Shown one piece after another: positions 1-33,915 of a stretch of 64,000 nt of DNA. The translations under genes were made by a program, and so were the position numbers. The stretch is from a virus, in the IMG/VR virus record IMGVR_UViG_3300045988_128600; one strand, written 5' to 3'. Positions within the stretch are counted from its first letter, which is position 1. Each line of letters opens with the position of its first letter. The notes beneath the pieces were generated by a model. It ran no database searches. It saw only the letters and a program-made list of their open reading frames with translations, and was not told the origin of the DNA.

Positions 1-19
1 AAATGATGATCGGTAAATC

Positions 20-223
20 TCATTTATTTTCTCCTTCATCAGATTTATTAAAACAAAAATGTAAATATTTATTTAAATCAGGAAGATTACCTAATTTTGG
101 AGGTATATTAAATAAATAAGGTTTATCTCCTTTAGTAAAATCTAAAAAATTATTTAGAAGAAAATAAACTTTTTCTTTATATTCTTGATAAGTTTCAATC
201 ATAAATACTTTCTCCTTTTCCAT
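20..223 (-). CDS. hypothetical small protein, last gene of the left-end minus-strand operon
   Basis: 67-aa ORF ending in TGA; very AT-rich; no recognisable motif. Confidence 0.3.
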   Translation of the reverse strand: MEKEKVFMIETYQEYKEKVYFLLNNFLDFTKGDKPYLFNIPPKLGNLPDLNKYLHFCFNKSDEGENK

Positions 224-2273
224 CTAAATAATTCAAAAACCATTCATAAGTAGGTACATAACATAACTCATTATTAAGATAATTTAATAATGGATAAATT
301 TCATTTTTAATATCATTAAAATTAGTTATACATTCTCCTCTTAGAAGATTAAATTCAATTTTCTAATTTTTAATATCTTCTATAATTTGTTTATCTAAAT
401 TGCATAAATTAGGGATATTATTAAAATCTTCTTTATTATTATATAAATTATACATAGTATATAATATATAATAAATTAAAAGAAGAATTTTTTCTAAAAA
501 ATAATTATTTTCATATCCATAAAAAGAAGAATCTAAATCACTTACTAATTTTATTTCATTAATAATCCTATAAAGATTCCGTCTTAAAGTGCTTTGTTTG
601 CAATCTTCGTCAATATTTTCTAATTTTAAAATATCAATAAAATTAGCAAAAAATACAATTATTTTATTGATATATCCTGTAATTATCATATTAGAATTAG
701 AATGAGATAAACAATTAGGATTGTCTTCTAACTAAGTTATATAAAGACCCAGATTCTAATCTTCTAACTCATAAGATTCACCATAAATATCGCATCTATC
801 TAAGAAAATACTGTCTTCTCCAAAGAAAAATTTTGAATATTTTATATTATTCTTAATAAGAAAATCTCTTTTAAGAATTAAATTAATCTTTTCAACTGAC
901 TTATCAACATTAGCTATTTTAAATACACCAAAATCTTCCTCACTATGTTTTATTGAATTATATAAAATTTCTAGAACATTATCATTCGGAAATAAATCAT
1001 CAGAATCCCAAAATAATACATATTTATTAAAAGAATACTCTAATCCTAAATTACGAGTTAGACCGGGTCCTTTTCGTTCTAAATTTTTAAAAAAGAAACA
1101 AGGAAAACTCGCTTCATCAAATACTTCAATAAGTTTTTTATCATAGAAAGAATGGTCGCTAATAAAATATACACAACAGTCTTTTATAATTGTTTGAGTG
1201 GATAAATTATTATACAAATTAATAATTTGCTAATCATTCATATTATAATAAGGTATTATAATATCCATTTTTCCATCAATAAAACGAGTAAAACATTTTT
1301 TTAAATAATAAGTATTATATCTAAATTCAATTGGACATCTATTTTCTTTAAATAACTAATAATTTTCTAAAAAATTTTCTTTATCATTAACTAATTTTAA
1401 ATAAAAATCATAATCTCTAAAATAGGCGTCTTCCATTGGAACTATAAATTCTGATTTTGTATCATAATATTTGTGCCAAATCCAAGAAGCTTCAGACATA
1501 GTTCCATCACAATATTTACAAATATTTTTAGGTTTAAAAATAAAATTATGTAAATCATCTAAACTATTTATATCCTCTAACCGCAAATAATCACTTTCAT
1601 CTTCTGGAATATTTACATTATATTTTTTTCTATAAATATCCAAATGTGCAGAAAAAGGACATATATAAATTTTATAATTTTTTAAAGTAAAACAAGGTAG
1701 CTAATGCGGACATTTATGAAAATATACTTCATTTATATCAGTAGTTCCCGCTTCATTTACAAGCTATTGTCGCATAAATAATCTTGAATTATGATTAAAC
1801 CCTAAACCATGACTATCTAAATATTCTACCGCTTTATGATCAGTATATTTTCCATAAGTAGTAATATCAAATATTACTCCCATATCTTGATATTCTTTCT
1901 CATGTTTAAAAGCATCTTGTAAATGACACCCATTGCTTAATATTTTAATTTCTACTTTATCTTTTGGAAAAACTTCTCTAGCAATCTAACATATTTCAAA
2001 TAATTTTGGATGTAAAGTAGGCTCTCCACCTAAAATCATAAAAAGTTTTATATTTGGAATTTTTTTATAAGCAAAAGTAATTTGATTGCGAAAATCATCT
2101 AAATCAATATACCAAGGTTCTGCCAAGGGAGAAAAATGATTACATCCCGCGCAATTAAGGTTACAATGATCTACAATATGCATTTCTAAGCTAACACCAT
2201 CATAGACCGATTTCCACACTGGATTAGTATAAGGAGGAATCCCTTGATAATTTTTAGTTCTATCTATTTCCAT
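195..2273 (-). CDS. radical-SAM domain followed by a family-2 glycosyltransferase domain in one continuous amber-read-through frame (a fusion, or two adjacent genes that cannot be separated under recoding)
   Basis: ATG at 2273-2271 sits 5 nt after a GGAGGA SD. The N-terminus has CNLNCAGC (CxxxCxxC) and ILGGEPTLHP. The frame has only TAG (about 8) and no TAA/TGA until TGA at 195-197. From M at about 1268 the sequence reads MDIIIPYYN...GPGLTRNLGL...WDSDD, which are GT-A/GT2 motifs. Confidence 0.5.
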
Positions 2274-2835
2274 ATTTATCCTCCAAAACATTTATAATAT
2301 TTCCATCATAATTAACTAATTCTTTTATTTGACTATCTCTTTCCTATAAAAAACATTCCGTACAAATTTCATTTATATCATTTAAATCACTATGAAAAAA
2401 TTCACAACGATGTATTTTTCTATTTAACTATTCACAATTTTTATCACACTTTAAAATCTATTCTTCTTTATCGTAAATAATTGGATGTTCTTCTTCAAAT
2501 CGTAAAGTTAAATATAACTTAAATTCTAATTGTCCCTAACTTGAATATAACATCGTTCTATAAAAAATAGATTTTACTGTAGATTCAAACGTAAATTTTT
2601 GTTTTTGATTAAAAACTAATTCAATAATTTTTATATCTTTGTATTCTAAATCTTTTAATTGATTATACAGATAATTTAATGAAGAATATTTTATATCATT
2701 TGAATTATTTACAATTTTACAAAAAGTAATTTCTTTTGGAAAATTTAATCCAAAAACAATATCATTACATTCACGCTCGTCAAACTTTACTGATTTTAGT
2801 AAAATTTGACGAGCATTATATAAATTAATTAACAT
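2254..2835 (-). CDS. Cys-rich (CxxC pairs) hypothetical protein, TAG-recoded
   Basis: ATG overlaps the upstream TAA (TAATG). Under TAG read-through (5 TAGs) the frame stays open to TAA at 2254. Cys pairs CDKNCE and CTEC are present. It overlaps the start of the next gene by about 20 nt. Confidence 0.4.
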
Positions 2836-3143
2836 TAATAATTACGCCAATATCCAGGAATTTTATATCCTAAGAAATGACGATAAATTAAATAATCTTC
2901 ACTCATATTAGGATTTTCATCTTCATTACAATTATCACAATCACAATTATTGTTATCATTAATACTAGAATCAACAATTTTTTTAATTAAATTGTTAATA
3001 AGAGAATTGACTTCTTCATTTTCTCCATTATTTTCAATCCAATTTAAATAGATTACATATAATAAATCTTTGTAATCTCCAACATCAGATGGGTTAAAAG
3101 TGTCATCTAAATGTTGAATTTGTCTTTTCATTTCTTCAATCAT
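2835..3143 (-). CDS. small acidic Cys-containing protein (CDCDNC)
   Basis: ATG at 3143 overlaps the TGA of the upstream rSAM-SPASM gene (ATGA). It ends in TAA, which overlaps the next ATG. The position suggests a RiPP-recognition-element-like partner, but no motif proves it. Confidence 0.4.
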   Translation of the reverse strand: MIEEMKRQIQHLDDTFNPSDVGDYKDLLYVIYLNWIENNGENEEVNSLINNLIKKIVDSSINDNNNCDCDNCNEDENPNMSEDYLIYRHFLGYKIPGYWRNY

Positions 3144-4539
3144 TATAATACCCCAATTGACGGCATAAAGTAAGCCATTTTTCTTTATCGATTTCACTCT
3201 TAAAATAATTTTTTTCAACGGCAATTTGAGTTAACCCTAATTCACAATAGGTTTTTGCCAAGAAAGTTAAATGTGTTTTATGTAATTTACAAACACTTTC
3301 CCCAGGAACAAATAAATCACCTGTCGCTTCATATTGAGCGCCTAAGCATCCTTTTAAACAATAAGGATCAAAAGGACAAGTCGGACAACCAATATTCATG
3401 TGCGTATTATTCATTTTAATTACACTATACACAGTAGGATTAATAGCAGTAATACCAACTACTTTATCATCTTTTACATCAAGACGTCCGCCAAGGAACT
3501 GAGGATAAGAAGTTCTATGACAAGGCGCAAATTCAAAACTTGCTACATAAAAACAAGTCTAATGTGAAATCGCACAAGTATATTCTTCGCTATCCCAAGT
3601 AGAAGTTAATCCAAGAGGGTCATAATTGCCAAGACAAGGTAAAGAACATTCTTCTCCGTCTCCTAAAAAAATATGTCTTGCCAATTTATCTACAGATTCA
3701 CCATTTTTATGGAATCTTACTTCAAGCATATGAGTTAAAAATTCAAGATAATGATCTAGTTTTTCATCAGTCCATTCATCATTACGAACTTCCAGATACA
3801 TAGGTTGAAAATCATGAATATCTTCACCAGCAAGATTATATTTTTCATATTGTTCGTCCCACCAATCAAAATTCTTAATAGCACTCTCAATATTACTTGG
3901 AGAAATCATAGGGTGAATACCACAAGGATTTCTTTGAAGAAATTCAAGAATTTTAATATAATAACTATCATCTTTATCGCGCTCGCGCACGCTATTATAA
4001 GGTCCATCTACAGAACAAGAAAGGCTTATTTCCATATTAATAGTTTTAAATCTAGTTAAAAGTTCTTCCATTCTTTTAGCTTTTTTATCATTGGTAGCAA
4101 AACTAAAATTATTCGGCATTACAATACGAGGATGATTATTAAAAAGATTAGGATGTTCATCATACAATTCTTTATAATATTTAAACATTAATTCAAATAT
4201 TTCAAATCCAATATCATCATAAAATAAATCTCCAGCAAAAAGTTCCATTTCATGAAATAAAACTTTTCTTTCTTTAAAAATATAATTTAAAATAATATCA
4301 GTATTATGAATTAAAGTTTTATTATCAACCCGCTTTTCCATAGGGTAAAGCTTATCTCCATATCTTGCAACATAACAATATTCACATTGTTGATTGCATT
4401 CAGGTCTTATAATAAGCTCAAAAGACTCCCCATTAATCCAGTATCCTTCCTCTTGATGGTCCCTATTAAAAATATAATTATCTACAAATTTTTCAAAATA
4501 TTTATTATTATCTAATTGACAACCTTCACTAATATTCAT
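3136..4539 (-). CDS. radical SAM / SPASM-domain maturase (TAG-recoded, about 467 aa)
   Basis: CNQQCEYC (CxxxCxxC) near the N-terminus. One in-frame TAG at 3559 joins the rSAM half to a C-terminal GCPTCPFDPYCLKGC, which is exactly the SPASM CX2CX5CX3C pattern. The start is coupled to the upstream stop (TAATG). Confidence 0.65.
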
Positions 4540-6038
4540 TAATTACTTTCTCCTCTATATTCATTCATATTTTCAGTATTTTGGAACCACTCTTCTTCAG
4601 GTTTAAGTAAATTATTTTCTCTATCTACATACATAAATAATGCTGATTGAGTTCTTAAAGTACCTATACTTCTTAATAAAGCACTACCTGAAGAAATAAA
4701 ATTATTATAAGTACAAGCATCAATTTTTGTTGCAATTAATGCCAATCTTAATAATTTATCAGGATTATATTTGTAGATAGAGTTTAATTGATTACATTCA
4801 TTAAGCATTTGTAAAGTATTTACAGTCGCTTGAAACATGAATGGGAAGGAATGTGTTTTATACATATCATATTTATATATAACTTTATTAATATCTTCTT
4901 CACTATCAGTTAAAAGATTGATACAATCAGTTTTAGTACGACGAGTATCTTTTCTTAATTGCGCTCCAATAGTGCCATCATCTTTAACATTATTACCGTC
5001 AAGATCAAACATAAAGTTTTGGCAAGACATCATAGTACCATCATAAAGTAATTTTAATTCATTAAAATTACCACTACAAAAATTATTTCTTGAAGCTACG
5101 GTAATTGCTTCTTGATTTCCTTCCATAACTAATCGCATTAATTCTTGAGGTGTAATTGGACGATCTTCTCCAGTAAATCCATGTAAATCAGAAAATACTT
5201 CTTCATAAAGATGACGGTAACCAATAATAATACCAACTGGAAGATGTGGGTCATGAAAATCACTTACATCAATATTAACAAGACGTTGTAAAAAAGATTC
5301 ATACTCAATACGCTCATCAACTGATCCATCTCTTGGGTTCTCAGGGCAAATAGATACGCTACTATTTACTTCAACTCTCTAATTAAGATTAATATCAGCT
5401 AATTCGAATCCAAAATTATCTAAATCTTTATAATAATCATGAACTTTTTGAGTTGTATTAAGCTCATGAATTAAAGCTCCAGAAAGAACACCATGTAATT
5501 GAATAGATACATTTACATTATGAAATTTAATTTTATTTAATTCTTTAATTACAGTTGAAGCAGTTTCAAAGATTTTTTCATTATTGGCATTTCTAATATT
5601 ATTGGTTGAGTAAGTGCCATCGTAAGAAAATTGAACTTCTAAAGCAAGTTCATTATTTGCCAATTCATCAACTTTTTTAATAAAATTAACAGTTCTTTCA
5701 GGGAAATCCATCCCATTAGTAGAATAATCAATATGATTAATATTTGGGAAATAATTAAACCAATCTTCCAAATGATCAGTAAGAAGATGCAGGGTCAATG
5801 TAGGTTCTTGACCCCATAAAGTAAAACATTCTATTTTATATCTGTCAAGATTTAAACGCTTAAAAATACCTTTTACATTATTTAAAAAAGTGCCATCATT
5901 TAAAGCTTTAATAGTTTCATGTTGTAAATTTGCGGAGCAATTATTTAAAGTATTTTCAATAAGACAATATTTACAATGTAAATTACATCCACATGAAGAT
6001 ACTAAAGATACTGCTCTAATATCCATTTCTTTAAACAT
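4539..6038 (-). CDS. radical SAM enzyme (TAG-recoded, about 499 aa)
   Basis: SCGCNLHCKYC (CxxxCxxC) and GQEPTL (GGEP-like) motifs. ORFs 5379..6038 and 4539..5138 are in the same frame with only TAG between them. GGAG SD upstream of ATG 6038; ends TAA at 4539-4541. Confidence 0.6.
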
Positions 6039-6071
6039 TTATATTTATAAAACTCCTTTTTCTCAAAAGAA

Positions 6072-6851
6072 TTAAGAACGTGATCTACCAGCGCCACTAC
6101 GATTTGTACTATTAGAAGTATAAGCCCCTCTATAGGCTCCTCTATAAGTACTTCTATTACCATTATTACTACTATAATTAGAACTTCTTACTCCATTATT
6201 ACTTGAGTAATTAGCAGTATAATAAGTATAATTACTTGAATAATTTGAACTTCTATTGCCATTATTACTACTATAGTTTGAACTTTTATTACCATTATTA
6301 CTTGAATAATCAGAAGAACGTTGGGCATTATTACTTGAATAATAAGAGCTTCTTTGGGCGTCATTACTACTATAATAAGAACTTCTTTGGGCGTCATTAC
6401 TACTATAATAAGAACTTCTTTGTGAATTATTGCTTGAATAATTAGAACTATTATAACTATTATTGCTTGTATAATCCGCACCATTATAGCTATTATTGCT
6501 TGTATAATTAGCACCACGATAACTATTATTACTTGTATAATCTGCTCCATTATAAGCGCAAATACCATTTATAGTATCAAGTTTACTTCTAATTTCTTCT
6601 AAGGGGACTCGTTTCATAAGCTCACTAGCTCTTGGAGCGGTAAAATTAGAAAAAATAGCCTAAGTTCCTACATAAGAAACATTTCTTAAATTTTCAATTT
6701 CATTTTTTAAAGTAGTAATGTCACTTTGTCTCGCATGACGCTCCCCGTTTGAGGAAGCAGTCGTGCGAGTTTGAGAAAAACGAGTCTAAGCAGTATTTAA
6801 AGTATCATATAGAGCGCGAACATCGCTCCATGAAATACGACTACCAGCCAT
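6072..6851 (-). CDS. repetitive S/N/Y-rich protein with leader-like N-terminus; candidate substrate (precursor) of the downstream rSAM/GT enzymes
   Basis: ATG at 6851-6849. Two in-frame TAGs (6786, 6660) join a non-repetitive about 80-aa N-terminal part to tandem about 10-11-aa repeats (YTSNNSY(R/N)G, QRSSYYSSN(D/N)A, NGN(K/R)SSNYSSN). Ends TAA. Confidence 0.55.
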
Positions 6852-6864
6852 TTATATTCTCTCC

Positions 6865-7281
6865 TTAATTTACAGCCTCGGGAGTGTAAGTTATATTAAG
6901 TTCTGCTACAGTATTATAACTATCAGCATATGACTTATCTCCAATATCATTATTATATTCGAAGACCATCTCAGCGATATTGGCGATATTTTTTTCAAAA
7001 ACTTTTCTATAATCATTAGAAACAGTTAAATAATATACACCAATTTTAGCAATCTTTGAACGATCAAAATTGCTAATAAGATCAGCAGAAACTTTAGATA
7101 AATTTAAAGCTTCAACATCATAACCTTCTGAATATTCACGTAGTCTGAAAGCATATTTAACTCCATTGGTTTCTCCATTAATACTCGCAGAAAAAACAAC
7201 AGGACCAGTTATAATACTTTCATTTTCTTTACCTTCATTATCAGTAACAATCACCTTAAAGGTATTATTTAATTCAGCCAT
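6865..7281 (-). CDS. hypothetical protein (138 aa), first gene of the left-end late-type operon
   Basis: Perfect AGGAGG SD. No in-frame TAG. Ends TAA. Follows the strong terminator at 7416-7447. Confidence 0.5.
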   Translation of the reverse strand: MAELNNTFKVIVTDNEGKENESIITGPVVFSASINGETNGVKYAFRLREYSEGYDVEALNLSKVSADLISNFDRSKIAKIGVYYLTVSNDYRKVFEKNIANIAEMVFEYNNDIGDKSYADSYNTVAELNITYTPEAVN

Positions 7282-7415
7282 TATTAAAATTCCTCCTAAT
7301 AAAATAAATAGTCAGGATATCATATATCCTATTTTTATTAAAAATTTATTTTATTTTATTTTTTAATTTCGGTTAAACCTAACCATTTATCATTTTTACT
7401 AAATAAATAATAACA

Positions 7416-7447
7416 AAAAAAAAGAGTAATGTCAAATGACATTACTC
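7416..7447. terminator. bidirectional rho-independent terminator
   Basis: agagtaatgtca-aa-tgacattactct hairpin flanked by an A-run and a T-run. Sits immediately 3' of gene 7454..7759 on the minus strand. Confidence 0.6.
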
Positions 7448-7453
7448 TTTAAA

Positions 7454-7759
7454 TTAACTTAATCCCAATCTTGCCTTCAAATCGGCAATATTTTTCTTTT
7501 CATCTGTGGTGATTTCAATCGGGGTTTCTCCACCTGCGGTTGCCCCATCTTCAAAATTCAAAACATTTGAATCCGCGGTTGCACCTGCTTCACCGACCGG
7601 AGTCTTTGGGCATGTCATACTAATAGCAATCTGAATTCGCTCACCATTTTCATTAGCCCAAAGATAATACTTTTTATCTCGCTCGCCGATCCAATCAGCG
7701 CCAAATACTTCCGCCATTTTCTTAGCGATCTGTTCCTTAGCTACTGCGCCTTTGGCCAT
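7454..7759 (-). CDS. hypothetical protein
   Basis: 101-aa ORF ending TAA; no in-frame TAG. Confidence 0.45.
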   Translation of the reverse strand: MAKGAVAKEQIAKKMAEVFGADWIGERDKKYYLWANENGERIQIAISMTCPKTPVGEAGATADSNVLNFEDGATAGGETPIEITTDEKKNIADLKARLGLS

Positions 7760-7771
7760 ATCTAATTCTCC

Positions 7772-9223
7772 TTAACTAAAATTATGTATAAAGTCTTTTA
7801 AAGACCTAAAATTATTAACTTTTTCTTCACCAGCATCTCTAAAGCACCAAGGACATAAATACATATCAGTCCCTTTATGATAGTGAATATCTTCTGTATA
7901 ATATAAATTATTACAACATTCGCATCGTTTACAATAAGTATCCGCACAACTATCGCAAACTAATTCATTCTCATCACCTACGGAATTTGCTTCATCGAGG
8001 ATTATACGAGAACCGCAACAAGCGCAATAACCATAGTTATCGTCTTCGTTTACTCCATAACTAAATTCACAGTCTCCGCATCGCATATATTCTCCACTTT
8101 CAATTATAGTTTTACCGCATTGTAAGCAGGGAACATCACCACCAATAGACCAATGAGGAAGATCAGTCTCCAATGGATAATAATACAACTTTAAACTGTA
8201 AATAGGTAAATAGCAAGAAGAATAAAGCAAATCATTATATTGAAGAGTATGCTCGCCAATATCTCCAACAATATCACCAATAGGATATAAACGAGATAAA
8301 ATAGGAATCCATGTTTCAGATAGTCCAATAGTTTCTTCACCAAAAGGAGTAGAGCTCATCCTATTAGAGACAGTGTTAATACCTCCATCTACCCAATCAC
8401 GCAACTGAAAAGTCTTATCAAAAGTATTAATAATATCTTTAATCTTAATTAAAGCATTAGTTGTCATAAAAGGATATTGGCGACCAGCCATCAGACCGCG
8501 TCGTTTATCTTCCATGTAAAGAAGCATACGCCATTTCTTAGAATTCCAAAGAACATCTTCGGGAAAGTGCGGAAGTTTCTGATTCTCCGCTCCGCGCAAA
8601 TAGCAAATAAAAGTGCTTCTATCTACCATGTAAGATAAATTTCCTGCTCTATATTCGCCATCAAGCGCATGGCAAGAACGCCAATTGTAAGTATTTTCAC
8701 TCACGCTTAAAAAATCCAAAGGATGAACTGAGAAACATAGTGTTCCCTCAATCTTATCCTCTTGGATAATACGACTTGCATAATTTTGAATGTCTTCCAA
8801 AGAGCGCGGATTCTCTTCAAAATACTTAAAAGCCTTAACTAATTTCATTCCTCTTGGAATCTTTTTATCCTTATAAAAATAAGTATCTATAACTGTATTA
8901 TCAAAGAATCCTTCTTTATTTACTGAAATAAAATCCTTTAAGTCTTCATTATTATAAGTATAATTAATTGTTTCAAGAAACTCCTCAAGACGATGCTCTT
9001 TAGTTTTATCATCTAAAGAAAAAGATACTTTTTCCGGCCATTCATAAATTAAATGACCGTGAAAAAATTTAATTAAGTCTTTTTTGGCTTCGAGGAATCT
9101 TTCGAATAGTTCTTCTGTTTTTGGATTACTGATTCCTTGGGAGTAACTGATGACTTTGTTGAACTGTTCTCTAATGCTTTCGATGTCGAAGTCACATGAC
9201 ATTTGACTAATCCTCCAATACAA
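7772..9223 (-). CDS. hypothetical protein with C-terminal multi-CxxC zinc-ribbon region; paralog of 11710..13314
   Basis: Shares an HPLD(F/Y) motif and a WNSK(K/R)WR motif with 11710..13314. The start is uncertain: the TTG-called start overlaps the upstream gene by 150 nt, and the first ATG is at 9197. Confidence 0.5.
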   Translation of the reverse strand: MYWRISQMSCDFDIESIREQFNKVISYSQGISNPKTEELFERFLEAKKDLIKFFHGHLIYEWPEKVSFSLDDKTKEHRLEEFLETINYTYNNEDLKDFISVNKEGFFDNTVIDTYFYKDKKIPRGMKLVKAFKYFEENPRSLEDIQNYASRIIQEDKIEGTLCFSVHPLDFLSVSENTYNWRSCHALDGEYRAGNLSYMVDRSTFICYLRGAENQKLPHFPEDVLWNSKKWRMLLYMEDKRRGLMAGRQYPFMTTNALIKIKDIINTFDKTFQLRDWVDGGINTVSNRMSSTPFGEETIGLSETWIPILSRLYPIGDIVGDIGEHTLQYNDLLYSSCYLPIYSLKLYYYPLETDLPHWSIGGDVPCLQCGKTIIESGEYMRCGDCEFSYGVNEDDNYGYCACCGSRIILDEANSVGDENELVCDSCADTYCKRCECCNNLYYTEDIHYHKGTDMYLCPWCFRDAGEEKVNNFRSLKDFIHNFS

Positions 9224-10179
9224 TCTTTACAATACTCGCTGTGTGGGTTCGCAGGGTCAATTTCAAATGCCTCTTCACACTCCGCACACCATTCAACATT
9301 ACTGGGAATACAATCAGGGCAATAAAAACATGTATGTCCATCTAATCCCTTTACTGGAAATGTTTCATATTCACTAAATAACTGACCGCATCCTCTACAA
9401 TGAACGTAGAATCCATCACCATCAGTTGGAAAATTCTTACAAATATTATCGAACCAAATGTTATGATAATTACGATAATACTCAAAATTAGGGATATCTT
9501 TCTCTTGGAGCATGCGGATTACCTTATTAATCGTATCAAAAAGAGCACCCGCATTTAATGTTTCAATACGGTTATGTTCATTTTTATAACCTACTGAAAG
9601 ATTTACACCACAAATTTTCCATTCAGGGCATAAAACGCTAATATCACTAAACGTGCCAAAATCCTCTACAAATCCAAAAGATTCAATGTAATCAATGAAT
9701 TTAGGATTGTAAAGGTCATAAAACACACAATCATTTGTGCCCTGTCTGTCCAACTGAATAATATATTTCAGATCAGGAAACGGACACTCAAAATATTGTA
9801 ATACTAATGCTTCGGCGCCTAATCCACCAAGCTCTTCATCGGTGGTAAAAATAATAGAAGGGCGCAAAGACGTATTTCTCAAAATATGAAGAATCGCATA
9901 TACTCCTGCTCTATCATCTGCGCCAAGACCATCGGGCGACCAAAGCACATTTTTTCTTGTATCATAATATAAATCTTTGACCGGTTTCTCAAATACGGTA
10001 TCAAGATGAGCTACTAAAGCAATCGGAATATCGCCGACCGCACAAACATATTCTTTAGTAATAACTACTTCAGTATATTTAGATTTCAATACATCGGCAA
10101 CATATTCCCTTAACTCATCTTGCGTCGAGCGAACCAGATATTCAAATAACCAAAGTTCATTAGTTTTAAAACCTCTCAC
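9073..10179 (-). CDS. putative Zn metallopeptidase (M20/M28/M42-like) with C-terminal zinc ribbon
   Basis: AHLDTV (HxD), GADDRAG (bridging Asp) and TTDEELGGLGA (EE) motifs. C-terminal CxxC pairs. Confidence 0.45.
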   Translation of the reverse strand: MRGFKTNELWLFEYLVRSTQDELREYVADVLKSKYTEVVITKEYVCAVGDIPIALVAHLDTVFEKPVKDLYYDTRKNVLWSPDGLGADDRAGVYAILHILRNTSLRPSIIFTTDEELGGLGAEALVLQYFECPFPDLKYIIQLDRQGTNDCVFYDLYNPKFIDYIESFGFVEDFGTFSDISVLCPEWKICGVNLSVGYKNEHNRIETLNAGALFDTINKVIRMLQEKDIPNFEYYRNYHNIWFDNICKNFPTDGDGFYVHCRGCGQLFSEYETFPVKGLDGHTCFYCPDCIPSNVEWCAECEEAFEIDPANPHSEYCKDCIGGLVKCHVTSTSKALENSSTKSSVTPKESVIQKQKNYSKDSSKPKKT

Positions 10180-10230: not shown

Positions 10231-10878
10231 TTATTTGTCAATTGAGTCCTCTTCCGCCTCGGGAATAGGATTATTCTGCTTACTTGCTTGAACGGCTTTA
10301 TCTATAACACGAGAAAATATAAATGCGGTTTCACAATAATGACACGTCCCTTGTCGTTGACAGCGCTGACCGCAATTGATGCGGTTGGGGCCAAAATCTT
10401 CGGGGATTCCACGATTATCCGCATTATAATTTAAATTGGTTAATAAAAGGTTTAGATTACCTTGCCAATGACCGCTTTGGTAGATATCCAAAAGCACAGC
10501 TTCTTTAGAAAGCGCAGGTTCGTCAAATTCTAAAGTTGAGACATATGTTCCATAATAATCCACATCTTCCGGTCGAACGTAGGAACCGCATATTCCATTT
10601 TCTCTTGGAAGGTTATCGTCATAGCATTTATTCGCAATCATACGAATTGGAACTTTTGCTTGCTGATTTAATTGTCTCAAATCAAACGTAAGCGGTGCCC
10701 CGATGAAAAGTTCGCTAACTCCAAGATCAAGGAGAACACGGACTTCTGCCCATGTAGTAGCAGGATAAGCGAAATAATACTTTATATCAATATTACATCC
10801 ATTACGAGTAAGCATATCTTCAAATGCTACAATAAGATCGACTTTATTCTTAAATGAATCAATCTCTTCCCAATTCAC
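10231..10878 (-). CDS. hypothetical protein
   Basis: 215-aa ORF ending TAA. Confidence 0.45.
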   Translation of the reverse strand: MNWEEIDSFKNKVDLIVAFEDMLTRNGCNIDIKYYFAYPATTWAEVRVLLDLGVSELFIGAPLTFDLRQLNQQAKVPIRMIANKCYDDNLPRENGICGSYVRPEDVDYYGTYVSTLEFDEPALSKEAVLLDIYQSGHWQGNLNLLLTNLNYNADNRGIPEDFGPNRINCGQRCQRQGTCHYCETAFIFSRVIDKAVQASKQNNPIPEAEEDSIDK

Positions 10879-11202
10879 TTCTTCGTTTTTGCGGATTCTG
10901 ATAATATATCGCTTATTGGGGAATTTCTAAATCATATCATACATAATGTTTATATCATTATAATTAACCATAAGCTCATCAGCCTTCTCGCGGACAACAT
11001 CAGGTTGACGCACAGAAACACAATATTTCAAATTATATCACTCCTTTATAATATAATTATAACAAAAAACTCCAATTTTGTCAAGAAAATTCTAAACGGC
11101 TTTTTACTTTTGGACTTTCGGTATGTGCGACCAGCACCGGTCGGAGCAGATAACAAGAAAAAATGGACTGAAAAATTTTCAGTCCATTTAATCATTTAAT
11201 GC

Positions 11203-11709: not shown

Positions 11710-13314
11710 TTAAAAAATCAAAGAAGGTCTTTGATTTGGGTTAGTGCCGTTAACCCAAGAAATAAATTCCTTTTCATTAATATCAAAAAGGTCTCTACCC
11801 TTTTTAGTGAGAGTTTCTCCATCGACATAATAATTGGAGCGCCAACCGTCTCTATCTTCTTCAATTTCACCAGTGAAGAAGGTTTTTACTTTTTTATCTT
11901 CACAACAATCCCAACAAATATCCACATAGAATCCAACTGGCTTCTTCTGGAATCGAAGGCGGATTTGCTTCATGTCATCATAATCTTTGCGGACTCTGCA
12001 ACAAGGACAAATTTCTGTGCTTTCATCATAACAATAAGCACAGTAAGTTTTTCCATCAACATTGTAAGTGTCATCGACATAAACAATATCGCCACACTTA
12101 TCACACTTTACCGCGCCGGAACAACTCGTGCAAATGACCATTTCCGCGTTATTCTCTCTATCATCGAGGAGAGAATCATCAAGAAGTTCTCCACAACACA
12201 TACACTCAGATTCACCCGAGTAGTTAAGATCAATGTTTTCGTCCGTAGGAATCTTAGTGGAAACGTAAGCATTATGCTCTGAATAAATATCGTTATACAT
12301 GAAATTGGTAACAAGATTGAAATAAATACTTCTATCAAGCTCACCAATAATATTATTACTGTAATTCTGAATCTTATTTAAATACTTGGTATAAGGACCA
12401 AAACCAAGATTCTGTTCAACGAGCTTTTTGATCCAAGCAAGACAAATGCTTTCAAGATTTTCATTACAATAAGGATAACCTTTAATACCAAGGATAAGAC
12501 TTTCGTCTACGATGAAAAGCTCACGCCAACGCTTGCTATTCCACATAACAGGCTTACCAACCTTATACCAAATTTCCATATCCTTATCAGATTTAAGGTA
12601 AGCTTCGAGGACAATGGGAGAATTCATCATCTCAACGGTTCCCTGACGATACTCGCCACCGCCATTCTGCCATCTCATACAAGAGTCCCAACCGCAATTA
12701 TTATCACTCATAGTGATATAGTCAAGAGGATGAATAGAAAGACAAAGTTCACCAGAAATATTTTTCTGATTAAGGAACTGAGAATGAGCGATACGGAACT
12801 TTTCATAGATATCGCGATCAATCTCCAAGATATCACTCATCTTACCAAGCATTTTGCTAAGCTTCATACCCTTATTAATCATAAGAGTTTTATCGTTGTA
12901 AGTGAATTTAAAAGATTCACCATCATAGATGTTGGACATTAAAGGCTCAACATCCAAAAGACTTGCCAGATTAAGATACTGAGTATTAGAGATGGTTGTC
13001 CTAAGATAAAGATCCCTTACCTTATTATTAAAGGTATTTCGGAATTCATATCCATCACTATTTCTACCGAAATAATCATAAAAATCCTCACTCATCTCTT
13101 CATAAGAACGAGAATAATTTACCTTACGAGAAATGATAAGATTATCTCCCAACATCTTATAAAGACTCTGTTTATTATAAGCCCAAAAGCGGAGAATGTA
13201 ATCGAGAGATGCCTTCATATCGGAACTATCTCCGCCAAGACCCGCAAAATTGCGGATATACCCTTCAATCTTTTCGCAATCTTCTTTGGAAAGGAGCTCA
13301 AATAAATTAGCCAT
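11710..13314 (-). CDS. hypothetical protein, paralog of 7772..9223 with C-terminal zinc ribbons
   Basis: 534 aa. Carries LSIHPLDY and WNSKRWR motifs shared with 7772..9223, plus multiple CxxC pairs. Confidence 0.55.
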   Translation of the reverse strand: MANLFELLSKEDCEKIEGYIRNFAGLGGDSSDMKASLDYILRFWAYNKQSLYKMLGDNLIISRKVNYSRSYEEMSEDFYDYFGRNSDGYEFRNTFNNKVRDLYLRTTISNTQYLNLASLLDVEPLMSNIYDGESFKFTYNDKTLMINKGMKLSKMLGKMSDILEIDRDIYEKFRIAHSQFLNQKNISGELCLSIHPLDYITMSDNNCGWDSCMRWQNGGGEYRQGTVEMMNSPIVLEAYLKSDKDMEIWYKVGKPVMWNSKRWRELFIVDESLILGIKGYPYCNENLESICLAWIKKLVEQNLGFGPYTKYLNKIQNYSNNIIGELDRSIYFNLVTNFMYNDIYSEHNAYVSTKIPTDENIDLNYSGESECMCCGELLDDSLLDDRENNAEMVICTSCSGAVKCDKCGDIVYVDDTYNVDGKTYCAYCYDESTEICPCCRVRKDYDDMKQIRLRFQKKPVGFYVDICWDCCEDKKVKTFFTGEIEEDRDGWRSNYYVDGETLTKKGRDLFDINEKEFISWVNGTNPNQRPSLIF

Positions 13315-23985: not shown

Positions 23986-24109
23986 TTTTTATCACCTTTA
24001 ATAGTTTTTCTTTATTTTATATTTATATTATATATTAAAATTTAATAAAAATCAATAAAGCGGTTTTGTCGCCCCAAGGTGGTATAAAGACTGGGTTTAA
24101 TGATCGGCT

Positions 24110-24235
24110 TATCAAAAATGGTCATTTTAAATGAAAATGGTCAAAATTTTCTATATGTTGGTCTAAAATTTCTATATTTTTGTCCGTTTTTTTCTATATT
24201 TCTGGTCAAAAAATGCTGATAAAGAGATCGGATAG
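24110..24235. repeat. cluster of direct repeats (GGTCAAAATTTCTATAT-like, x4)
   Basis: The sequences ggtcattttaaatg, ggtcaaaattttctatatg, ggtctaaaatttctatatt and tttttctatatttctggtcaaaaaatg follow one another directly. Confidence 0.5.
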
Positions 24236-24259
24236 CAAGTATAGAGGCGGATTAGGGCA

Positions 24260-24455
24260 AGGAAAACCGCGTTGGTAATTTTTCATAGTTGCTTATTTTC
24301 ATATAGATGTCTAAATTTTAAACAAAATAGGTAAAAATTTTAGGTAATTTTTCATAGTTCCCTATTTTTATTTAGAATTTGTAGGTAATTTTTAATAGTT
24401 AGCGATCGGTTTAGTTAGAATTTTTAAGAAATTTTTCATAGTTGCCTTTAAAAAT
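24260..24455. repeat. iterons, TAGGTAATTTTTCATAGTT x4, upstream of the RepA_N-like gene
   Basis: Four spaced copies of ggtaatttttcatagtt (or ...aatagtt) separated by about 50 bp. Confidence 0.6.
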
Positions 24456-24505
24456 ATACTTTGGGTAAAAATTGTTAAAATTACTATTTTAGATTTGAAG
24501 TATAT

Positions 24506-25156
24506 ATGAAGGAGGTGGAAGCGTTGCCAGTAGAATAGAAAAGATTTCCTGCTAATGTAGATATGAATATATTAACTTTTTTAAATAATAAGAAAATAAA
24601 TGGTGAATTATATGCTTATTTATAGAGTTTATCTGAATATAATGTTATTAGTAAATAGCATAATATTTATAAAACTTATGTATTGAAAAAATGGTTGCCA
24701 ATTCAAAGTAAGATGTGTCAAATGCTTGGTATTAAAAGTCCTAAAACATTAAAAACGCATTTGAATTATTTAATTGAACAAGGGTATATTATAGAAGAAG
24801 AAGATAGATATATATTACCTGAAATGGAAAATATATATTTTCTTATTCCTTTACATACATTAAGATATATAAATGATAACTGTAAAGAACATATTATAAA
24901 GATATATATTTATTTGGGATAGCGTTATAAATATGCGTTAAATAATGGAAGTTAGTATGAATTTACATTAGAGGAAATTGGAGAACATAGCGGTATAAAA
25001 GTTAAGAATAATAGCAGAGGTTATGAAATTATTAATAATGCTTTAACGTTTTTATAGAATTCAGAATTGATTGATTATGTTAGTTTTTTTGATGGATAGA
25101 TGTAGAAAAAGAAATTAACAAAATTTAGTTTTGAATATAAAAATTAGAATAGGTAA
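24506..25156 (+). CDS. RepA_N / DnaD-like replication initiator (winged helix), TAG-recoded
   Basis: AAGGAGG SD then ATG at 24506. With 7 in-frame TAG read as sense the product is about 216 aa. ELYAYLQSLS...WLPIQSKMCQMLGIKSPKTLKTHLNYLIEQGYI matches the RepA_N helix-turn-helix pattern, and a second wing follows (TLEEIGEHSGI). Ends TAA at 25154-25156. Confidence 0.5.
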
Positions 25157-25240
25157 TTTTTAATAGTTGCTTAATAGGCATTTTAGGTAATTTTTCATAG
25201 ATGCTTCGACTTAAATTAGGTAAAAAATCATAGATTATCT
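25140..25240. repeat. iterons, TAGGTAATTTTT(C/A)ATAG x3, downstream of the RepA_N-like gene
   Basis: Same motif as at 24260-24455, so the gene is bracketed by the repeat on both sides. Confidence 0.55.
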
Positions 25241-25264
25241 AAGTAATAAGTAGAGGGTGTTTCC

Positions 25265-25330
25265 TAAGTAGTTTGTATGATACAAATGATCGGCTTCGCC
25301 TCACTTTGTATCATACAAACATTTGATTTT
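25265..25330 (+). terminator. long-stem hairpin terminator
   Basis: gtttgtatgatacaaa ... tttgtatcatacaaac, a 16-bp stem, followed by a T-run. Confidence 0.5.
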
Positions 25331-25352
25331 TTTGTAAGAAAGGTAATGTAGA

Positions 25353-25916
25353 ATGAAAAAAGAAGAATGGTCTAAATTAATAGGTCATGGAATAAGAGAA
25401 GATACTTATATTTTGTTAGAAAGAATGCGTGGTGGGGAAAAATATAATGATATTATAAAAGACATAGATAATAATAGAGAGAAATATCATATAAAGAAGT
25501 ATACTGCTTTATCAAAAAGAGAAACAGTAGAGAAATATTTGTTAATAGCTAATAATGAAGAAAAAGTTAAATTAAATAATATAGAAAATAAACATGGTAT
25601 TTATGGAATATATATAAATAATATTTTGATTTATATTGGCAAAACTACTACTTCATTTAAAGTAAGATTTCAATAGCATAAACATTTTATGAATGTAGAG
25701 GAAAATAAAGATTATTTATATTAGATATTAAAATGTGCTAAATAGAATAATTAGATTATAACATTAAAACCGCTTATTATAGTAGAAGATTTAAAAGTTC
25801 AATATCCTATCAAAGATAGAGATTTAGATGCTATGGAGTTAGCCTTAATAACTTTATATAAGCCTTAGTGTAATAAAATTATAGATTTTTTTAAGAGTAA
25901 AAGGAGTAAAATATGA
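25353..25916 (+). CDS. GIY-YIG homing endonuclease, TAG-recoded
   Basis: HGIYGIYINNILIYIGKT is a canonical GIY-(10)-YIG. Five in-frame TAGs extend it to about 187 aa; it ends in TGA. Confidence 0.6.
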
Positions 25917-26164
25917 GTTATAGTTATACAGATATAAAAGGCGGAAAAGGCAATCTGTCTATTGTTAAATTTAGAAGAGGAACGCAAGAATAGTTTGATA
26001 AGTTGGATAAGACAGGTATGATAAAACCTGATTTATATATGAAAGATGATACTCTTTATTTAGTTATTCCTACAAATACAAAGCCAGTAGAGGTAGCATT
26101 TGACAGTGATAAGCCTGAATCAATAGAAGAAAATCCATTCTTACAAGATTCTATTTGCTATTAA
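25913..26164 (+). CDS. hypothetical protein (one in-frame TAG)
   Basis: ATGA overlap with the upstream stop; AAAGGAG SD. Confidence 0.35.
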
Positions 26165-27878: not shown

Positions 27879-28493
27879 TTAGAGTTCTTGAAGCAACTCC
27901 AAAGTTTTTTCGTATCCATACTTATTTATCAATCGAGTTGTTTCAATTATAATTTCTTTTCGATTCATTAGCATCCATCTGGGGTTATCTTCCGGCGAAC
28001 CCCATCTAAGATTTTCTAATCTATTATCAGTGCGGTTTCCGTTAATGTGATCTATAATCTATTCTTCAAAATTAATATTTGGTTGCCAAGATTGTAATAC
28101 TATACGATGTAAATTATAATTCTAATTATTAATAGAAACTCTAACATACCCCTAATAAATTGTTCCTTTTAAAATTATTTTAGTCCGTTTATTCCTAACT
28201 CGACCTAAATTAGAAACTTCATAATTCTTAGAGCAATAAGTTTCTATCCATTTTTCTCCATCTAATTCTGTCGTATCACTTCTGCGAGTAGAAAATAAAG
28301 ATTTATCAACGTCTTGCTTTTCCGTGCGCTCAACGGTATAAACTGCTTTTGCTCCAATACCTGTTCTTGTAATTAAGAATCCTCGTTTTAATTGATTCTT
28401 ACAAAACAAAGGAAAATTTGCACTAATTGTGGAGATTGCTACTCCAAAATAATCTGCTAATTCTTGTTTATTCAAAATAATCAGTCCTTTCAT
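27879..28493 (-). CDS. HNH homing endonuclease (N-terminal HTH, NUMOD4-like, HNH_3), TAG-recoded
   Basis: N-terminal HTH (QELADYFGVAISTIS) and a WIETYCSKNYEVSNLGRVRN NUMOD4-like motif precede TAG at 28152. Reading 4 TAGs as sense reveals DHINGNRTDNR-x-KNLRWGSPEDN, which is the HNH motif. Ends TAA at 27879-27881. Confidence 0.65.
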
Positions 28494-29740: not shown

Positions 29741-30118
29741 TTAACGCGCCATGCGGAAGTAGGACTTGCGCTTGTCCACAATCTTTTCCACCTTGTTGGC
29801 GTCAATCATCTGACGCAGAAGAGCGGAAACGCGCTGGTTGGTGAGGTCGCCCAGATCGTCCACATTCTTAATGAGGTCGGTCACGGTATACAGCTTGTCG
29901 GGGTTTGCGGTCATTTCAGCAAGGATAATGTCCTTGTAGCCGTCGTTGGCAATCTGATTCGCGGTCGGCTTCTTATCGCCCGCGTTCTTCTTGGCGAGCA
30001 ATTCGATTTCGTGGTTGATAAACTCAACCATAGCAGGGTCAGCCTGGACCTCGGACAGCTTGAGCAGAGCCTCGAAACGGTCGCGCTTGGTGAGCTTCTT
30101 AACAGTAGAAGTAGACAT
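29741..30118 (-). CDS. hypothetical protein, paralog family A
   Basis: About 60% identical to 32307..32681 over its length; shares the HEIELLAKKNAGDKKPTA motif. Confidence 0.55.
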   Translation of the reverse strand: MSTSTVKKLTKRDRFEALLKLSEVQADPAMVEFINHEIELLAKKNAGDKKPTANQIANDGYKDIILAEMTANPDKLYTVTDLIKNVDDLGDLTNQRVSALLRQMIDANKVEKIVDKRKSYFRMAR

Positions 30119-32306: not shown

Positions 32307-32681
32307 TTATGCGTGGGAGAAGTAGGACTTGCGCTTGTCAACCGTCTTGACAACCGTGCCTGCATCAATCATCTGACGCAGAAGAGCAGAAACACGCTGG
32401 TTGGAATACTCCGCAAGCTCGGGAACGCCCTTGATGAGGTCGGTCACGGTATACAGCTTGTCAGGGTTTGCGGTCATCTCGTCCAGAATGACCTGCTTCA
32501 CAGCGTCATTCTCCATCTGCTTGGCCGTGGGCTTCTTATCGCCCGCGTTCTTCTTGGCGAGCAATTCAATCTCATGCTCGATGAACGCCACCATGTCAGG
32601 ATTTGCCTGAACCTCGCTCATTTTGAGCAGAGCCTCGAAACGGTCGCGCTTGGTGAGCTTCTTAACAGTAGAAGTAGACAT
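32307..32681 (-). CDS. hypothetical protein, paralog family A
   Basis: Paralog of 29741..30118 and 11203..11619. Confidence 0.55.
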   Translation of the reverse strand: MSTSTVKKLTKRDRFEALLKMSEVQANPDMVAFIEHEIELLAKKNAGDKKPTAKQMENDAVKQVILDEMTANPDKLYTVTDLIKGVPELAEYSNQRVSALLRQMIDAGTVVKTVDKRKSYFSHA

Positions 32682-33184
32682 AGTATCAATTCCTTTCTGG
32701 TTTTTGAGACTGTCCTTGTCTTTGATGTAGTTATTATATCATAGGTGGCGCAGGTTGTCAATAGGTTTTGCAAATTTTTTTTAGGGGCGGTCGCGAGGTT
32801 TATTACTATACATCTTGTTTATACCTACCTTTATCTATAATCATAAACCAATTCATTTTACTAAACCAAATTAGTCTTTAAGGCGGTGGACGAGCATTAG
32901 AAGTCATCTTGTTTTTACCTCTCTCATTTGATGTATTCATTATACCCTACGTAGAACGGTTTGTCAAGGGGTTTTTCAAACTTTTTTTTTGAAAGTTTGT
33001 TCGGCACGCCACGCTTGGAACATTCCGTCGGATTTTGGTATAATGGTCAAGGGAACTGCCTTTCCGCAGGTCTTACTCTTTCCTCCTGACATTATGTAGT
33101 ATAGCAGATTGGTAATGATTTGTCTATTGGCAGAATGACCAAATAACGGGAAAAAATAAAATTGAAATTTGTGCAAAATTTCTC

Positions 33185-33213
33185 TTGACAAAAATGCTGG
33201 CAGGGTGTATAAT
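33185..33213 (+). promoter_or_regulatory. consensus TTGACA-N17-TATAAT promoter on the plus strand (repeat copy E2)
   Basis: Same layout as the promoter at 30648-30676. Confidence 0.45.
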
Positions 33214-33219
33214 GGTAAA

Positions 33220-33330
33220 TTCCGGTCGCAACATGCGTTAGCGACCGGCCAATTTTATCACATTTAAGGAACTTTGTCAATAGTCAAAGTAAACAAAAAA
33301 ATCTCCCCATTTTTGGGAAGATTTTCTTTT
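33220..33330 (+). ncRNA. candidate sRNA (repeat-family copy E2)
   Basis: GC stem-loop ccggtcgc...gcgaccgg, then the terminator tctcccca-ttttt-gggaaga and a T-run. Confidence 0.3.
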
Positions 33331-33604
33331 AGCCAATCACATTGACCTCGGTTTTGATAGGCGTTACCATCTTGTCGCGCGGGAACTCGCGAACCTGACC
33401 CGTTTCAAGATTCACCGCGTAGCAATACTGCGGGCCTCTCGACCGGACAAACGGCGTGTTGTTGTTGCTGTCAATTTTAAGATACATTCCCATACCGCTA
33501 CCATTGGAACGCAGAGTGGTGAACGTGCCACCGCTGAGAACGTTGATAATCTGGAACTGACCCTTAGTGCCAAAATTTACTTTCATTTTTATTTCCTCTT
33601 TCAA
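33329..33604 (-). CDS. hypothetical protein
   Basis: 91-aa ORF. Confidence 0.4.
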   Translation of the reverse strand: MKEEIKMKVNFGTKGQFQIINVLSGGTFTTLRSNGSGMGMYLKIDSNNNTPFVRSRGPQYCYAVNLETGQVREFPRDKMVTPIKTEVNVIG

Positions 33605-33915
33605 AATTCTTCTAAGAAGTGAATCGGTTTATGATTTGGTCTGAAAAATGCCATTCCCTCGGTATAAAGAGAATTAAACAAATCCGCAGACACTTCAAAC
33701 CATTCCGTGCCACTAATGCGATTGCCCAACTCACTTAAAGTCAGATGACAAGAATTTTCCATGTCTCGGCTTCCAGCGCAAGTGCTACGCATTATTGCTT
33801 TTGGATTATGGGTGTAATAGGTTTTACGACGATTTGCAAGGTTTTTAGTGCCGTCAGAATAGCCAACTTTAACCAAATGACTATTGGCTAAATTATCCAT
33901 CATCAAATACAGCAT
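33601..33915 (-). CDS. hypothetical protein; weak T5orf172/GIY-YIG-like signature
   Basis: VKVGYSDGTKNLANRR loosely resembles the T5orf172 motif; the resemblance is weak. Confidence 0.3.
   Translation of the reverse strand: MLYLMMDNLANSHLVKVGYSDGTKNLANRRKTYYTHNPKAIMRSTCAGSRDMENSCHLTLSELGNRISGTEWFEVSADLFNSLYTEGMAFFRPNHKPIHFLEEF

Follow-up and report, generated by a model that had tools for sequence, protein, structure and literature searches.

A cluster of seven genes at the left end of a viral DNA sequence of 64,000 nucleotides (IMG/VR record IMGVR_UViG_3300045988_128600, referred to here as the window) has been analysed and is probably a phage-borne, late-expressed protein-maturation cassette, of the type known for RiPPs (peptides that are made on the ribosome and modified after translation). 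The product of the second gene, g2, would be its dedicated substrate. Apart from this repeat protein the cluster encodes three radical S-adenosylmethionine (rSAM) proteins (g3, g4 and g7), the last of them fused to a family 2 glycosyltransferase (GT2), and three small proteins (g1, g5 and g6).

Under the standard code only minus-strand fragments are seen across positions 1-7300 of the window. When TAG is read through, the fragments fuse into seven contiguous minus-strand open reading frames (ORFs) at 195-7281, and the TAG-recoded seven-gene operon proposed in a first-pass annotation of the sequence is therefore real. The genes are g1 (6865-7281; 138 aa, no in-frame TAG), g2 (6072-6851; 259 aa, two TAG codons, with a tail of 11-aa Tyr/Ser/Asn repeats), g3 (4539-6038; 499 aa, one TAG; a twitch-type rSAM protein with the motifs CNLHCKYC and GQEPT), g4 (3136-4539; 467 aa, one TAG; an rSAM/SPASM protein with CNQQCEYC and CPTCPFDPYCLKGC), g5 (2835-3143; 102 aa, no TAG), g6 (2254-2835; 193 aa, five TAG codons, two C-terminal CxxC pairs) and g7 (195-2291; 698 aa, eight TAG codons; CNLNCAGC and GGEPTLHP followed by GT2). 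The true start of g7 is likely to be MEIDRT at 2273, giving 692 aa. All seven genes stop at TAA or TGA and are tightly packed: at four junctions the genes share 1, 8, 1 and 20-38 nt, and at the other two they are separated by 13 and 33 nt; the overlap of 8 nt is that of the g5 start with the end of g4. The GC content of 195-7281 is 26.6%, as against 37.6% in the adjacent genes; the figure of about 23% given earlier for the operon applies to g5-g7 only (20-23%).

The meaning of TAG has been examined by a codon-by-codon comparison of the cluster genes with those of four relatives. TAG codons are aligned with TAG (37), CAA/CAG (18), Asn (8), Lys (6) and Tyr (6) codons, CAA/CAG being the commonest partner other than TAG itself (18 of 58), and among near-identical relatives four of the five TAG changes are to Gln codons. 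Since a change from TAG to CAA takes two substitutions, this pairing points to selection on meaning and not to mutational proximity, and on these alignments TAG is most likely a sense codon for glutamine. In-frame TAG in long conserved ORFs and the alignment of TAG with Gln, two features of phages using code 15, are both found here; recoding of UAG to Gln by means of suppressor tRNAs in gut phages is documented (PMC10879173). In-frame TAG is frequent in the plus-strand late genes of the window and rare in the minus-strand block at 7.4-23.8 kb, the conserved genes of which have none except for a single TAG in a 266-aa gene (10231-11031). A release factor gene with PCRF and RF-1 domains is encoded in two distant relatives that share the upstream synteny of the window (L009:1554-2636 and L012:2134-3216), which fits stop-codon recoding. 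The total ORF length under each alternative code has also been tried as a test of the code and is not discriminating.

The g2 protein begins with a conserved helical domain of about 100 aa (about 6552-6851), followed by a hypervariable tail of Tyr/Ser/Asn repeats (6072-6551), which ends in the conserved sequence NRSGAGRSRS. Inside the gene there is a tandem DNA repeat (6150-6541, minus strand) with a period of 33 nt, or 11 aa, in 11.9 copies with 74% matches. The first ~100 residues align with proteins of distant phages, in which the gene likewise adjoins rSAM genes; it is a real conserved gene and not the non-coding low-complexity region that had been considered as a possibility. An exhaustive search of the g2-domain profile against 1.84 billion representatives has yielded a family of 237 clusters, 130 of them at E <= 1e-10, in which the domain nearly always occupies residues 1-103. 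An AlphaFold2 model built from 75 sequences has three long helices with a short helical turn between the second and the third (pLDDT 81.5, pTM 0.69). Neither a comparison of this model with BFVD and the PDB nor a PDB sequence search with the domain has given any meaningful match, and the modelled fold of this precursor family is novel.

The tails that follow the domain are 30-420 residues long, with extremes of up to 570 residues, in products of 140-670 aa. They are unrelated in sequence and alike in make-up, with 18.6% Ser, 13.8% Phe, 12.1% Asn and 11.7% Gly, and with aromatic residues at 24% in all. The aromatic residues are preferentially spaced four apart and are seldom adjacent, and aromatic-N-x-[S/T] units occur 2.6 times as often as in shuffled sequences, a statistic that is inflated by the tandem repetition. 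Among relatives with N-terminal domains at least 90% identical the tails range from 38 to 159 residues and differ in copy number, all with the same C-terminal NRSGAGRSRS. The repeat unit, of 11 aa in the window, is of 4-5 aa elsewhere.

A circularly permuted subfamily has also been identified (P0170, P0190, P0195, P0196, P0243, P0250 and P0280; L042:783-1484), in which the tail is N-terminal and the helical domain C-terminal. The N-terminal extensions of such 'long' precursors had been considered as fusions to g1 and are permuted repeat tails instead. Another precursor, P0157 (L043:507-1628), ends in a Hint/intein-like domain (CLIPGTLI...IVHN|AITK; a weak match to Intein_splicing of Pfam), which could cleave or transfer the C-terminus of the tail but not splice, as no Cys, Ser or Thr follows HN.

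The gene order of precursor domain, g3 and g4 connects the repeat protein with the enzymes. Hidden Markov models (HMMs) were prepared for each component and applied to 38 loci, taken from bacterial genomes, from metagenomes and from contigs of viruses, of which 22 lineages have enough sequence upstream. The order is found in 19 of the 22 at the HMM threshold; in one of the remaining three (L030) a divergent look-alike of the precursor is seen by eye. The permuted precursor of L042 and the Hint-bearing precursor of L043 each lie directly upstream of a g3-like rSAM gene. In L011/L028, a single contig, the complete module occurs twice in tandem, and either copy has a precursor, g3, g4, g5 and two genes similar to the peptidase U32 family; three genes of the rSAM-GT2 type are present in addition. 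The conserved core, which is not the gene set first described, is the precursor, a twitch rSAM protein, a SPASM rSAM protein, a small helical protein and one or more U32-like barrel proteins, while g7 with its GT2 domain (missing from many lineages), g6, g1, a YcaO protein and a Cys-rich protein of 170-180 aa are accessories.

Between the sister phages L003 and L005 the DNA identity is 49-79% in the cassette and 93-98% in both flanks. The block of low identity, of ~10.8 kb, begins shortly before g1 and stops where the ~290-aa U32-like gene ends. The cassette evolves as one unit, and far more quickly than the remaining genome. Its hosts belong to the gut Clostridia and related groups, and the same cluster occurs in six IMG/VR contigs of 97-196 kb; a megablast search with positions 1-9000 and a tblastn search with g4 against GenBank phages gave no match. 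A copy in the standard code is present in an SPbeta-like prophage with YonJ, YonG and YonD domains (L007, Clostridiales Family XIII PM5-7).

The CxxxCxxC motif is invariant in the families of g3, g4 and g7. When the recoded translations are compared with PF04055 of Pfam, g7 scores above the cut-off (30.7 against 29.5), whereas g3 (25.9) and g4 (14.7) are below it. Both g3 (at 9e-8) and g4 match phrog_1802, annotated as 'radical SAM domain-containing protein', and g3 is on this account taken to be a paralogue of g4. In an alignment of 16 g3 sequences the invariant residues are C18, C22 and C25, the set C321-x12-G334-x4-C339, and C442. The CX12GX4C motif with one further invariant Cys indicates that g3 is twitch-like, with a single auxiliary cluster. 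The NCBIfam model N_Twi_rSAM matches the twitch-type candidates, g3 and the N-terminal domain of g7, weakly.

In 36 homologues of g4 the rSAM cysteines C48, C52 and C55 and seven C-terminal cysteines (C322, C340, C385, C388, C394, C398 and C417) are invariant. The latter are arranged as C...C, CX2CX5CX3C and C, the seven-Cys signature of SPASM domains with two auxiliary clusters. The SPASM model TIGR04085 is matched by 25 of the 36 members, the best at 1e-6, but g4 itself scores 18.3 bits against a cut-off of 27, and the earlier assignment of g4 as an rSAM-SPASM protein holds by its cysteines and not by the profile score. The NCBIfam matches of the 36 members, all weak, are to PapB (33), the nif11-type maturase (30), QhpD (30), SPASM (25), YhhB (19), the SCIFF maturase (16), XyeB (15) and anSME (14), and one homologue is annotated as AslB. 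The cyclophane-synthase models YhhB, XyeB, FxsB and AmcB give partial matches only, far below their cut-offs (YhhB 18 bits against 445; XyeB at 1e-4 or weaker in its 15 members). A PDB sequence search with g4 returned nothing, and one with the family profile a single marginal SPASM match (8vpo, E 0.0055); nothing relevant on the function of the rSAM structure 7WZV was found in the literature. By its sequence relationships g4 is a new family inside the peptide/protein-maturase branch, and a best match to nucleotide-modifying enzymes of the QueE or NrdG type without SPASM support, the outcome named earlier as fatal to the proposal, is seen for neither g3 nor g4.

The g7 protein is made up of a twitch-type rSAM domain (about 1491-2192) fused to a GT2 domain (about 822-1262; PF00535, 41.8 bits against a cut-off of 23.3), and the continuity of a third rSAM domain with a glycosyltransferase noted in the first-pass annotation is borne out, both Pfam domains being above their cut-offs. 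The C-terminal 200 aa lie outside both domains. The fusion is retained throughout the g7 family (98 matches), with C43, C47, C50, C200, C211, C258, C261, D429xD431 and E492-D493 as invariant residues; the cysteines of the twitch-type auxiliary site (C200, C211, C258 and C261) are kept in 52-53 of 53 sequences. The nearest solved relatives of the GT2 domain are TarS (3e-19), TarP (1e-17) and GalT1 (5hea, 8e-15). GalT1 takes part in the glycosylation of a serine-rich repeat adhesin, while TarS and TarP glycosylate wall teichoic acid, TarP being prophage-encoded. The label 'glycocin-type' given to this glycosyltransferase is not supported, the domain being nearest to these three and an accessory of the cassette; no model or structure of glycocin glycosyltransferases of the SunS, ThuS or GccA type is among the profile matches, although no comparison dedicated to them was made. 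The rSAM core of g7 has weak partial matches to the models of MoaA, NrdG and pVip. Its identification as a viperin was considered and rejected, since the PADLOC pVip match spans only model positions 2-87 of 257, the generic rSAM core.

Profile searches of the seven cassette proteins have given only rSAM and GT2 matches. The g1 protein has no match in Pfam, NCBIfam or PHROGs. A small g1-like protein is encoded directly upstream of the precursor in several lineages, with its position conserved and its sequence not: g1 is 40% identical between sister phages, and the g1-like proteins of different lineages have no BLAST similarity. The g5 protein is acidic, with a largely helical structure, and not Cys-rich as had been stated; in many lineages it is encoded next after g4. 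The g6 protein accompanies g7 in several lineages.

The operon is not confined to 195-7281, the range first described, but runs on past the left end of the window. A conserved ORF of about 60 aa beginning MIETYQ (20-202, minus strand; 95% conserved in L001 and L003) has a start that overlaps the g7 stop and a stop that overlaps the ATG of the next gene. The first codons of this gene (1-23, minus strand; MRFTDHHF) encode the beginning of a Cys-rich protein of 167-180 aa, c180, the next member of the cassette. Downstream of g7, relatives that are 94-98% identical to the window have the 60-aa ORF, the Cys-rich protein, YcaO, one ~290-aa gene and tail-fibre-like glycine-rich proteins, in this order. 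The YcaO assignment in relatives is clear (PF02624, 98.8 bits against a cut-off of 25.7, E 5e-28); no E1-like or TfuA partner has been identified for it.

For the ~290-aa protein, sequence methods give mere hints of peptidase U32 (PF01136), and a PDB sequence search with its profile returned nothing. An AlphaFold2 model from 21 sequences, of high confidence (pLDDT 86.7, pTM 0.87), is an eight-stranded barrel. Most lineages have two paralogous genes of this kind after g5, and the lineage of the window a single copy. The U32 proteins UbiU and UbiV, both of the Fe-S type, are needed for an O2-independent, prephenate-dependent hydroxylation of an aromatic ring, and TrhP and RlhA have been connected with the hydroxylation of RNA (PMC10990095). 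By analogy, the U32-like proteins of the phages are treated here as hypothetical hydroxylases. In the SPbeta-like prophage the module is immediately followed by a gene for DAHP synthase (L007:14193-14996), in this one lineage only, and a chorismate mutase gene is found ~8 kb from the module in L012 (19974-21530), beside a Na/sulfate symporter, in what may be host DNA. Such enzymes could supply aromatic amino acids or prephenate. As support for the U32 chemistry they were set aside as a weak hint, in view of the single lineage of the one and the possible host origin of the other.

The 5' boundary of the cassette transcription unit is likely to lie at 7407-7450, as judged from two sites predicted just upstream of g1: the terminator of the upstream operon (7450-7421, minus strand; a 13-bp stem followed by a T-run) and, overlapping it, the best sigma-70-like promoter match (7435-7407, minus strand; TTGACA-17-TATTAT with TG). 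The block in which the sister phages are of low identity begins at this same place. On the strength of the terminator and the promoter-like site the cassette would form a transcription unit of its own. PHROGs assigns a large terminase, a portal and a virion protein to the plus strand at 47-60 kb, late genes for which Pfam gave nothing informative. The cassette is on the opposite strand to these head and tail genes. Its place in a late transcription unit, as first described, we infer only from the use of TAG and from the tail-fibre-like genes downstream in relatives.

These observations are best accommodated, in our view, by a scheme in which the conserved helical domain of g2 serves as a handle recognised by the enzymes or by accessory proteins, normally at the N-terminus and at the C-terminus in the permuted subfamily, and the hypervariable tail of Ser, Asn, Gly and aromatic repeats is the part modified. 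The g3 protein, with one auxiliary cluster, and g4, with a full SPASM domain, would modify the tail along its length by radical chemistry, with crosslinks of the C-C or C-heteroatom type as the likeliest outcome. The barrel proteins similar to U32 may add a further O2-independent step, which by analogy with UbiU and UbiV could be aromatic-ring hydroxylation. In the lineage of the window the rSAM-GT2 fusion would glycosylate the Ser/Thr/Asn-rich tail and YcaO would modify the backbone, with the small proteins g1, g5, g6 and c180 assisting. In-frame TAG codons would restrict translation to the recoded, late phase, and because of this the product would be made alongside the virion proteins, to be carried on the particle or released at lysis.

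A bolder form of this scheme is that the aromatic residues are hydroxylated without oxygen by a U32-type pair, giving DOPA-like residues, crosslinked by the rSAM enzymes and sometimes glycosylated, and that the product on the virion, or after release, acts as an adhesive, receptor-binding or counter-defence polymer. This is doubtful in its full extent, with perhaps one chance in several. We know of no U32 protein that acts on a protein. If true, it would give U32 hydroxylases their first protein substrate and phages their first late or structural protein matured by rSAM enzymes.

Several points weigh against the proposed maturation of g2. The architecture of a RiPP cluster, namely a ribosomal precursor with a recognition part and a core next to maturases, is present at the gene level, and the RiPP or protein-crosslinking layout first suggested is upheld in so far as the repeat gene is tied to the rSAM genes and g4 is maturase-like. 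However, no RiPP recognition element (RRE; PqqD-like, PF05402), leader peptidase, exporter or immunity gene was detected in g1-g7 with Pfam, NCBIfam and PHROGs, and the conserved core of the annotated loci is likewise devoid of an RRE, a leader peptidase or an exporter gene. Only 16 residues in g3 and 45 in g4 precede the rSAM motif, so that neither enzyme has an N-terminal recognition domain. Every family-specific rSAM model scores far below its equivalog cut-off, in addition to the low SPASM score of g4 itself. The divergent loci of Oscillospiraceae have (SNGTx)n tails with few aromatic residues, and aromatic crosslinking cannot for that reason be universal; these tails and the low scores of the cyclophane-synthase models leave the cyclophane chemistry on Y-x-x-N motifs, suggested at first, unsupported. 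The sequence link to U32 is weak (Pfam below the cut-off in two of nine members, hhalign E 0.017), and the family keeps three cysteines (C188, C192 and C218) in place of the four-Cys motif. ARAGORN found no tRNA, and hence no suppressor, within the 64-kb window, nor does the window contain a release-factor gene; the late timing can on this account only be inferred. The connection between g2 and any of the enzymes is drawn from the genes, their order and co-occurrence.

Two other explanations have been considered in detail, and each of them we judge to be improbable, about equally so. In the first, the locus is a factory of small molecules or cofactors, in which the repeats are multi-copy cores that are modified and then excised by host or phage peptidases, as in PQQ, mycofactocin and multi-core RiPPs. 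The maturases of PQQ and mycofactocin are SPASM enzymes acting on Tyr. The short tandem repeats of the tails, the free variation of their copy number and the presence of an M28/M20-like peptidase gene 2 kb upstream of the cassette would all agree with this explanation. The repeats are, however, imperfect, conserved cleavage sites are not obvious in the tails, the conserved core has no protease, and the peptidase gene lies outside the diversified cassette, in the flank that is 96-98% conserved and in a separate operon.

In the second, the enzymes act on a substrate other than protein, such as phage DNA, nucleotide sugars or the wall teichoic acid of the host, and g2 is an unrelated structural or scaffolding protein that travels with them. 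That the solved structures most similar to the GT2 part of g7 are teichoic-acid glycosyltransferases is in its favour and tells against a protein substrate for this enzyme, and the MoaA, NrdG and pVip matches of the g7 rSAM core lean the same way. Pathways for the hypermodification of phage DNA are documented (PMC8989533), and the known substrates of U32 proteins are RNA bases and a quinone ring (PMC10990095). Against this, g3 and g4 match maturases of peptides and proteins and not nucleotide enzymes; the matches to the latter are weak, partial and confined to the g7 rSAM core, that of pVip being limited to the generic region. The adjacency of g2, g3 and g4 in 19 of the 22 lineages, seen with the permuted precursors also, and the duplication of the precursor together with the enzymes also speak against it.

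The idea of a bacteriocin-type weapon by which a temperate phage benefits its lysogens, like sublancin on SPbeta, is the least probable of all: among the biosynthetic clusters surveyed in phages nearly every one is for a bacteriocin and in a temperate phage, sublancin, a glycocin with a GT2 enzyme, is encoded on SPbeta (bioRxiv 10.1101/2020.10.01.322628) and one relative of the cassette is the SPbeta-like prophage mentioned above, but an exporter, an immunity gene and a leader peptidase were not found, the products are proteins of 140-670 aa and not short peptides, in-frame TAG would block expression in an uninfected lysogen with the standard code, and the cassette adjoins tail-fibre-like genes in the lineage of the window and lies upstream of YonG and a terminase gene in L007.

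The favoured reading, the maturation of g2 by the enzymes encoded next to it, has been compared with known systems. The triceptide systems (XyeAB, YhhB) share with the cassette a conserved recognition part and a variable core beside an rSAM/SPASM enzyme. Their crosslinks are formed on aromatic-X-X motifs (PMC11499958), and the phage tails are, in a comparable way, enriched (2.6x) in aromatic-N-x-[S/T]. The phage cassette differs in that two distinct rSAM proteins are paired, an RRE is absent, U32-like proteins are partners in the core and the locus is phage-borne; its 'leader' is a predicted folded domain of 100 residues, located at either end, and its tails reach 570 aa. The sublancin cluster of SPbeta is also phage-borne, with a ribosomal product and a GT2-family glycosyltransferase. 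Its precursor is short and is encoded with an exporter, with thiol-disulfide oxidoreductases and with an immunity protein; it lacks rSAM enzymes and is expressed by lysogens (bioRxiv 10.1101/2020.10.01.322628). None of these features is shared by the phage cassette, which carries TAG codons.

The serine-rich repeat glycoproteins (Fap1, GalT1) have in common with the cassette a Ser-rich repeat encoded with GT-A glycosyltransferases, which are cytoplasmic in that system. They are secreted, cell-wall-anchored adhesins, exported through SecA2/Y2, and involve no rSAM chemistry; in the phages the glycosyltransferase is fused to an rSAM domain and the repeat protein has no export signal. The anSME enzymes are rSAM/SPASM proteins that modify a full-length protein, and are among the weak matches of the g4 family (14 of 36). 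Their model is, however, matched far below its equivalog cut-off, a sulfatase is not encoded and the C/S-x-P-x-R motif does not occur in g2. UbiU/UbiV, TrhP and RlhA differ from the phage U32-like family, which is marginally similar to them in sequence and has three conserved cysteines.

The principle of a precursor with rSAM/SPASM maturases is already known. The precursor family, the obligatory pair of rSAM proteins, the U32-like partners, the rSAM-GT2 fusion and the phage-borne, recoded setting are new, and no description of this module was found in the searchable literature. According to a survey, biosynthetic clusters are seldom found in phages and nearly always encode simple bacteriocins in temperate ones, with sublancin as the model (bioRxiv 10.1101/2020.10.01.322628). 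The cassette is of about 11 kb, encodes several rSAM enzymes and is met again in numerous large phages and prophages from gut Clostridia. That it diverges faster than the remaining genome is what one would expect of arms-race genes. A twitch rSAM protein, a SPASM rSAM protein, U32-like proteins, an rSAM-GT2 fusion and YcaO are not, to our knowledge, reported to work together on one protein, and the combination could reveal new anaerobic protein chemistry. The cassette also suggests a concrete, putative function for part of the recoded gene set of phages with TAG reassigned, and the standard-code copy in the sequenced Clostridiales Family XIII genome PM5-7 offers a tractable entry point.

A number of other features have been identified in the window and its relatives. 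Downstream of the cassette and on the same strand, L003 (17946-21251) encodes tail-fibre-like proteins with glycine-rich domains of the ALK/LTK type (Pfam 4e-35). Across the greater part of these proteins sister phages are 94-96% alike, and they diverge in one segment near 19.8-20.7 kb. The M28/M20-like peptidase upstream of the cassette (9073-10179, minus strand) has a C-terminal extension rich in zinc ribbons and belongs to a conserved operon; an M28-like gene is found at the same position in the distant relatives L009 and L012. Two paralogous large Cys-rich proteins are encoded on the minus strand at 7772-9223 (483 aa) and 11710-13314 (534 aa), with a ...HPLD...W.SC... core and many C-terminal CxxC pairs. 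One of them matches phrog_18912, and L009 and L012 have a gene of 460-465 aa at the same relative position.

An island of 24% GC at 24001-26000 contains TAG-rich plus-strand genes (24506-25916), and a homing-endonuclease-like gene with HNH_3 and NUMOD4 domains and three in-frame TAGs is found at 27879-28493; the two are probably mobile insertions. Two near-identical paralogues of 124-125 aa (MSTSTVKKLTKRDRFEALLK...), neither of which has a Pfam match, are encoded on the minus strand at 29741-30118 and 32307-32681, about 2.5 kb apart, which suggests a local duplication. Rfam gave no family over the whole window. At 33000-44500 the GC content reaches its maximum for the window (40-44%). Long ORFs are scarce in this stretch whichever code is used, and a MazE/AbrB-like gene is encoded within it at 36121-36573.

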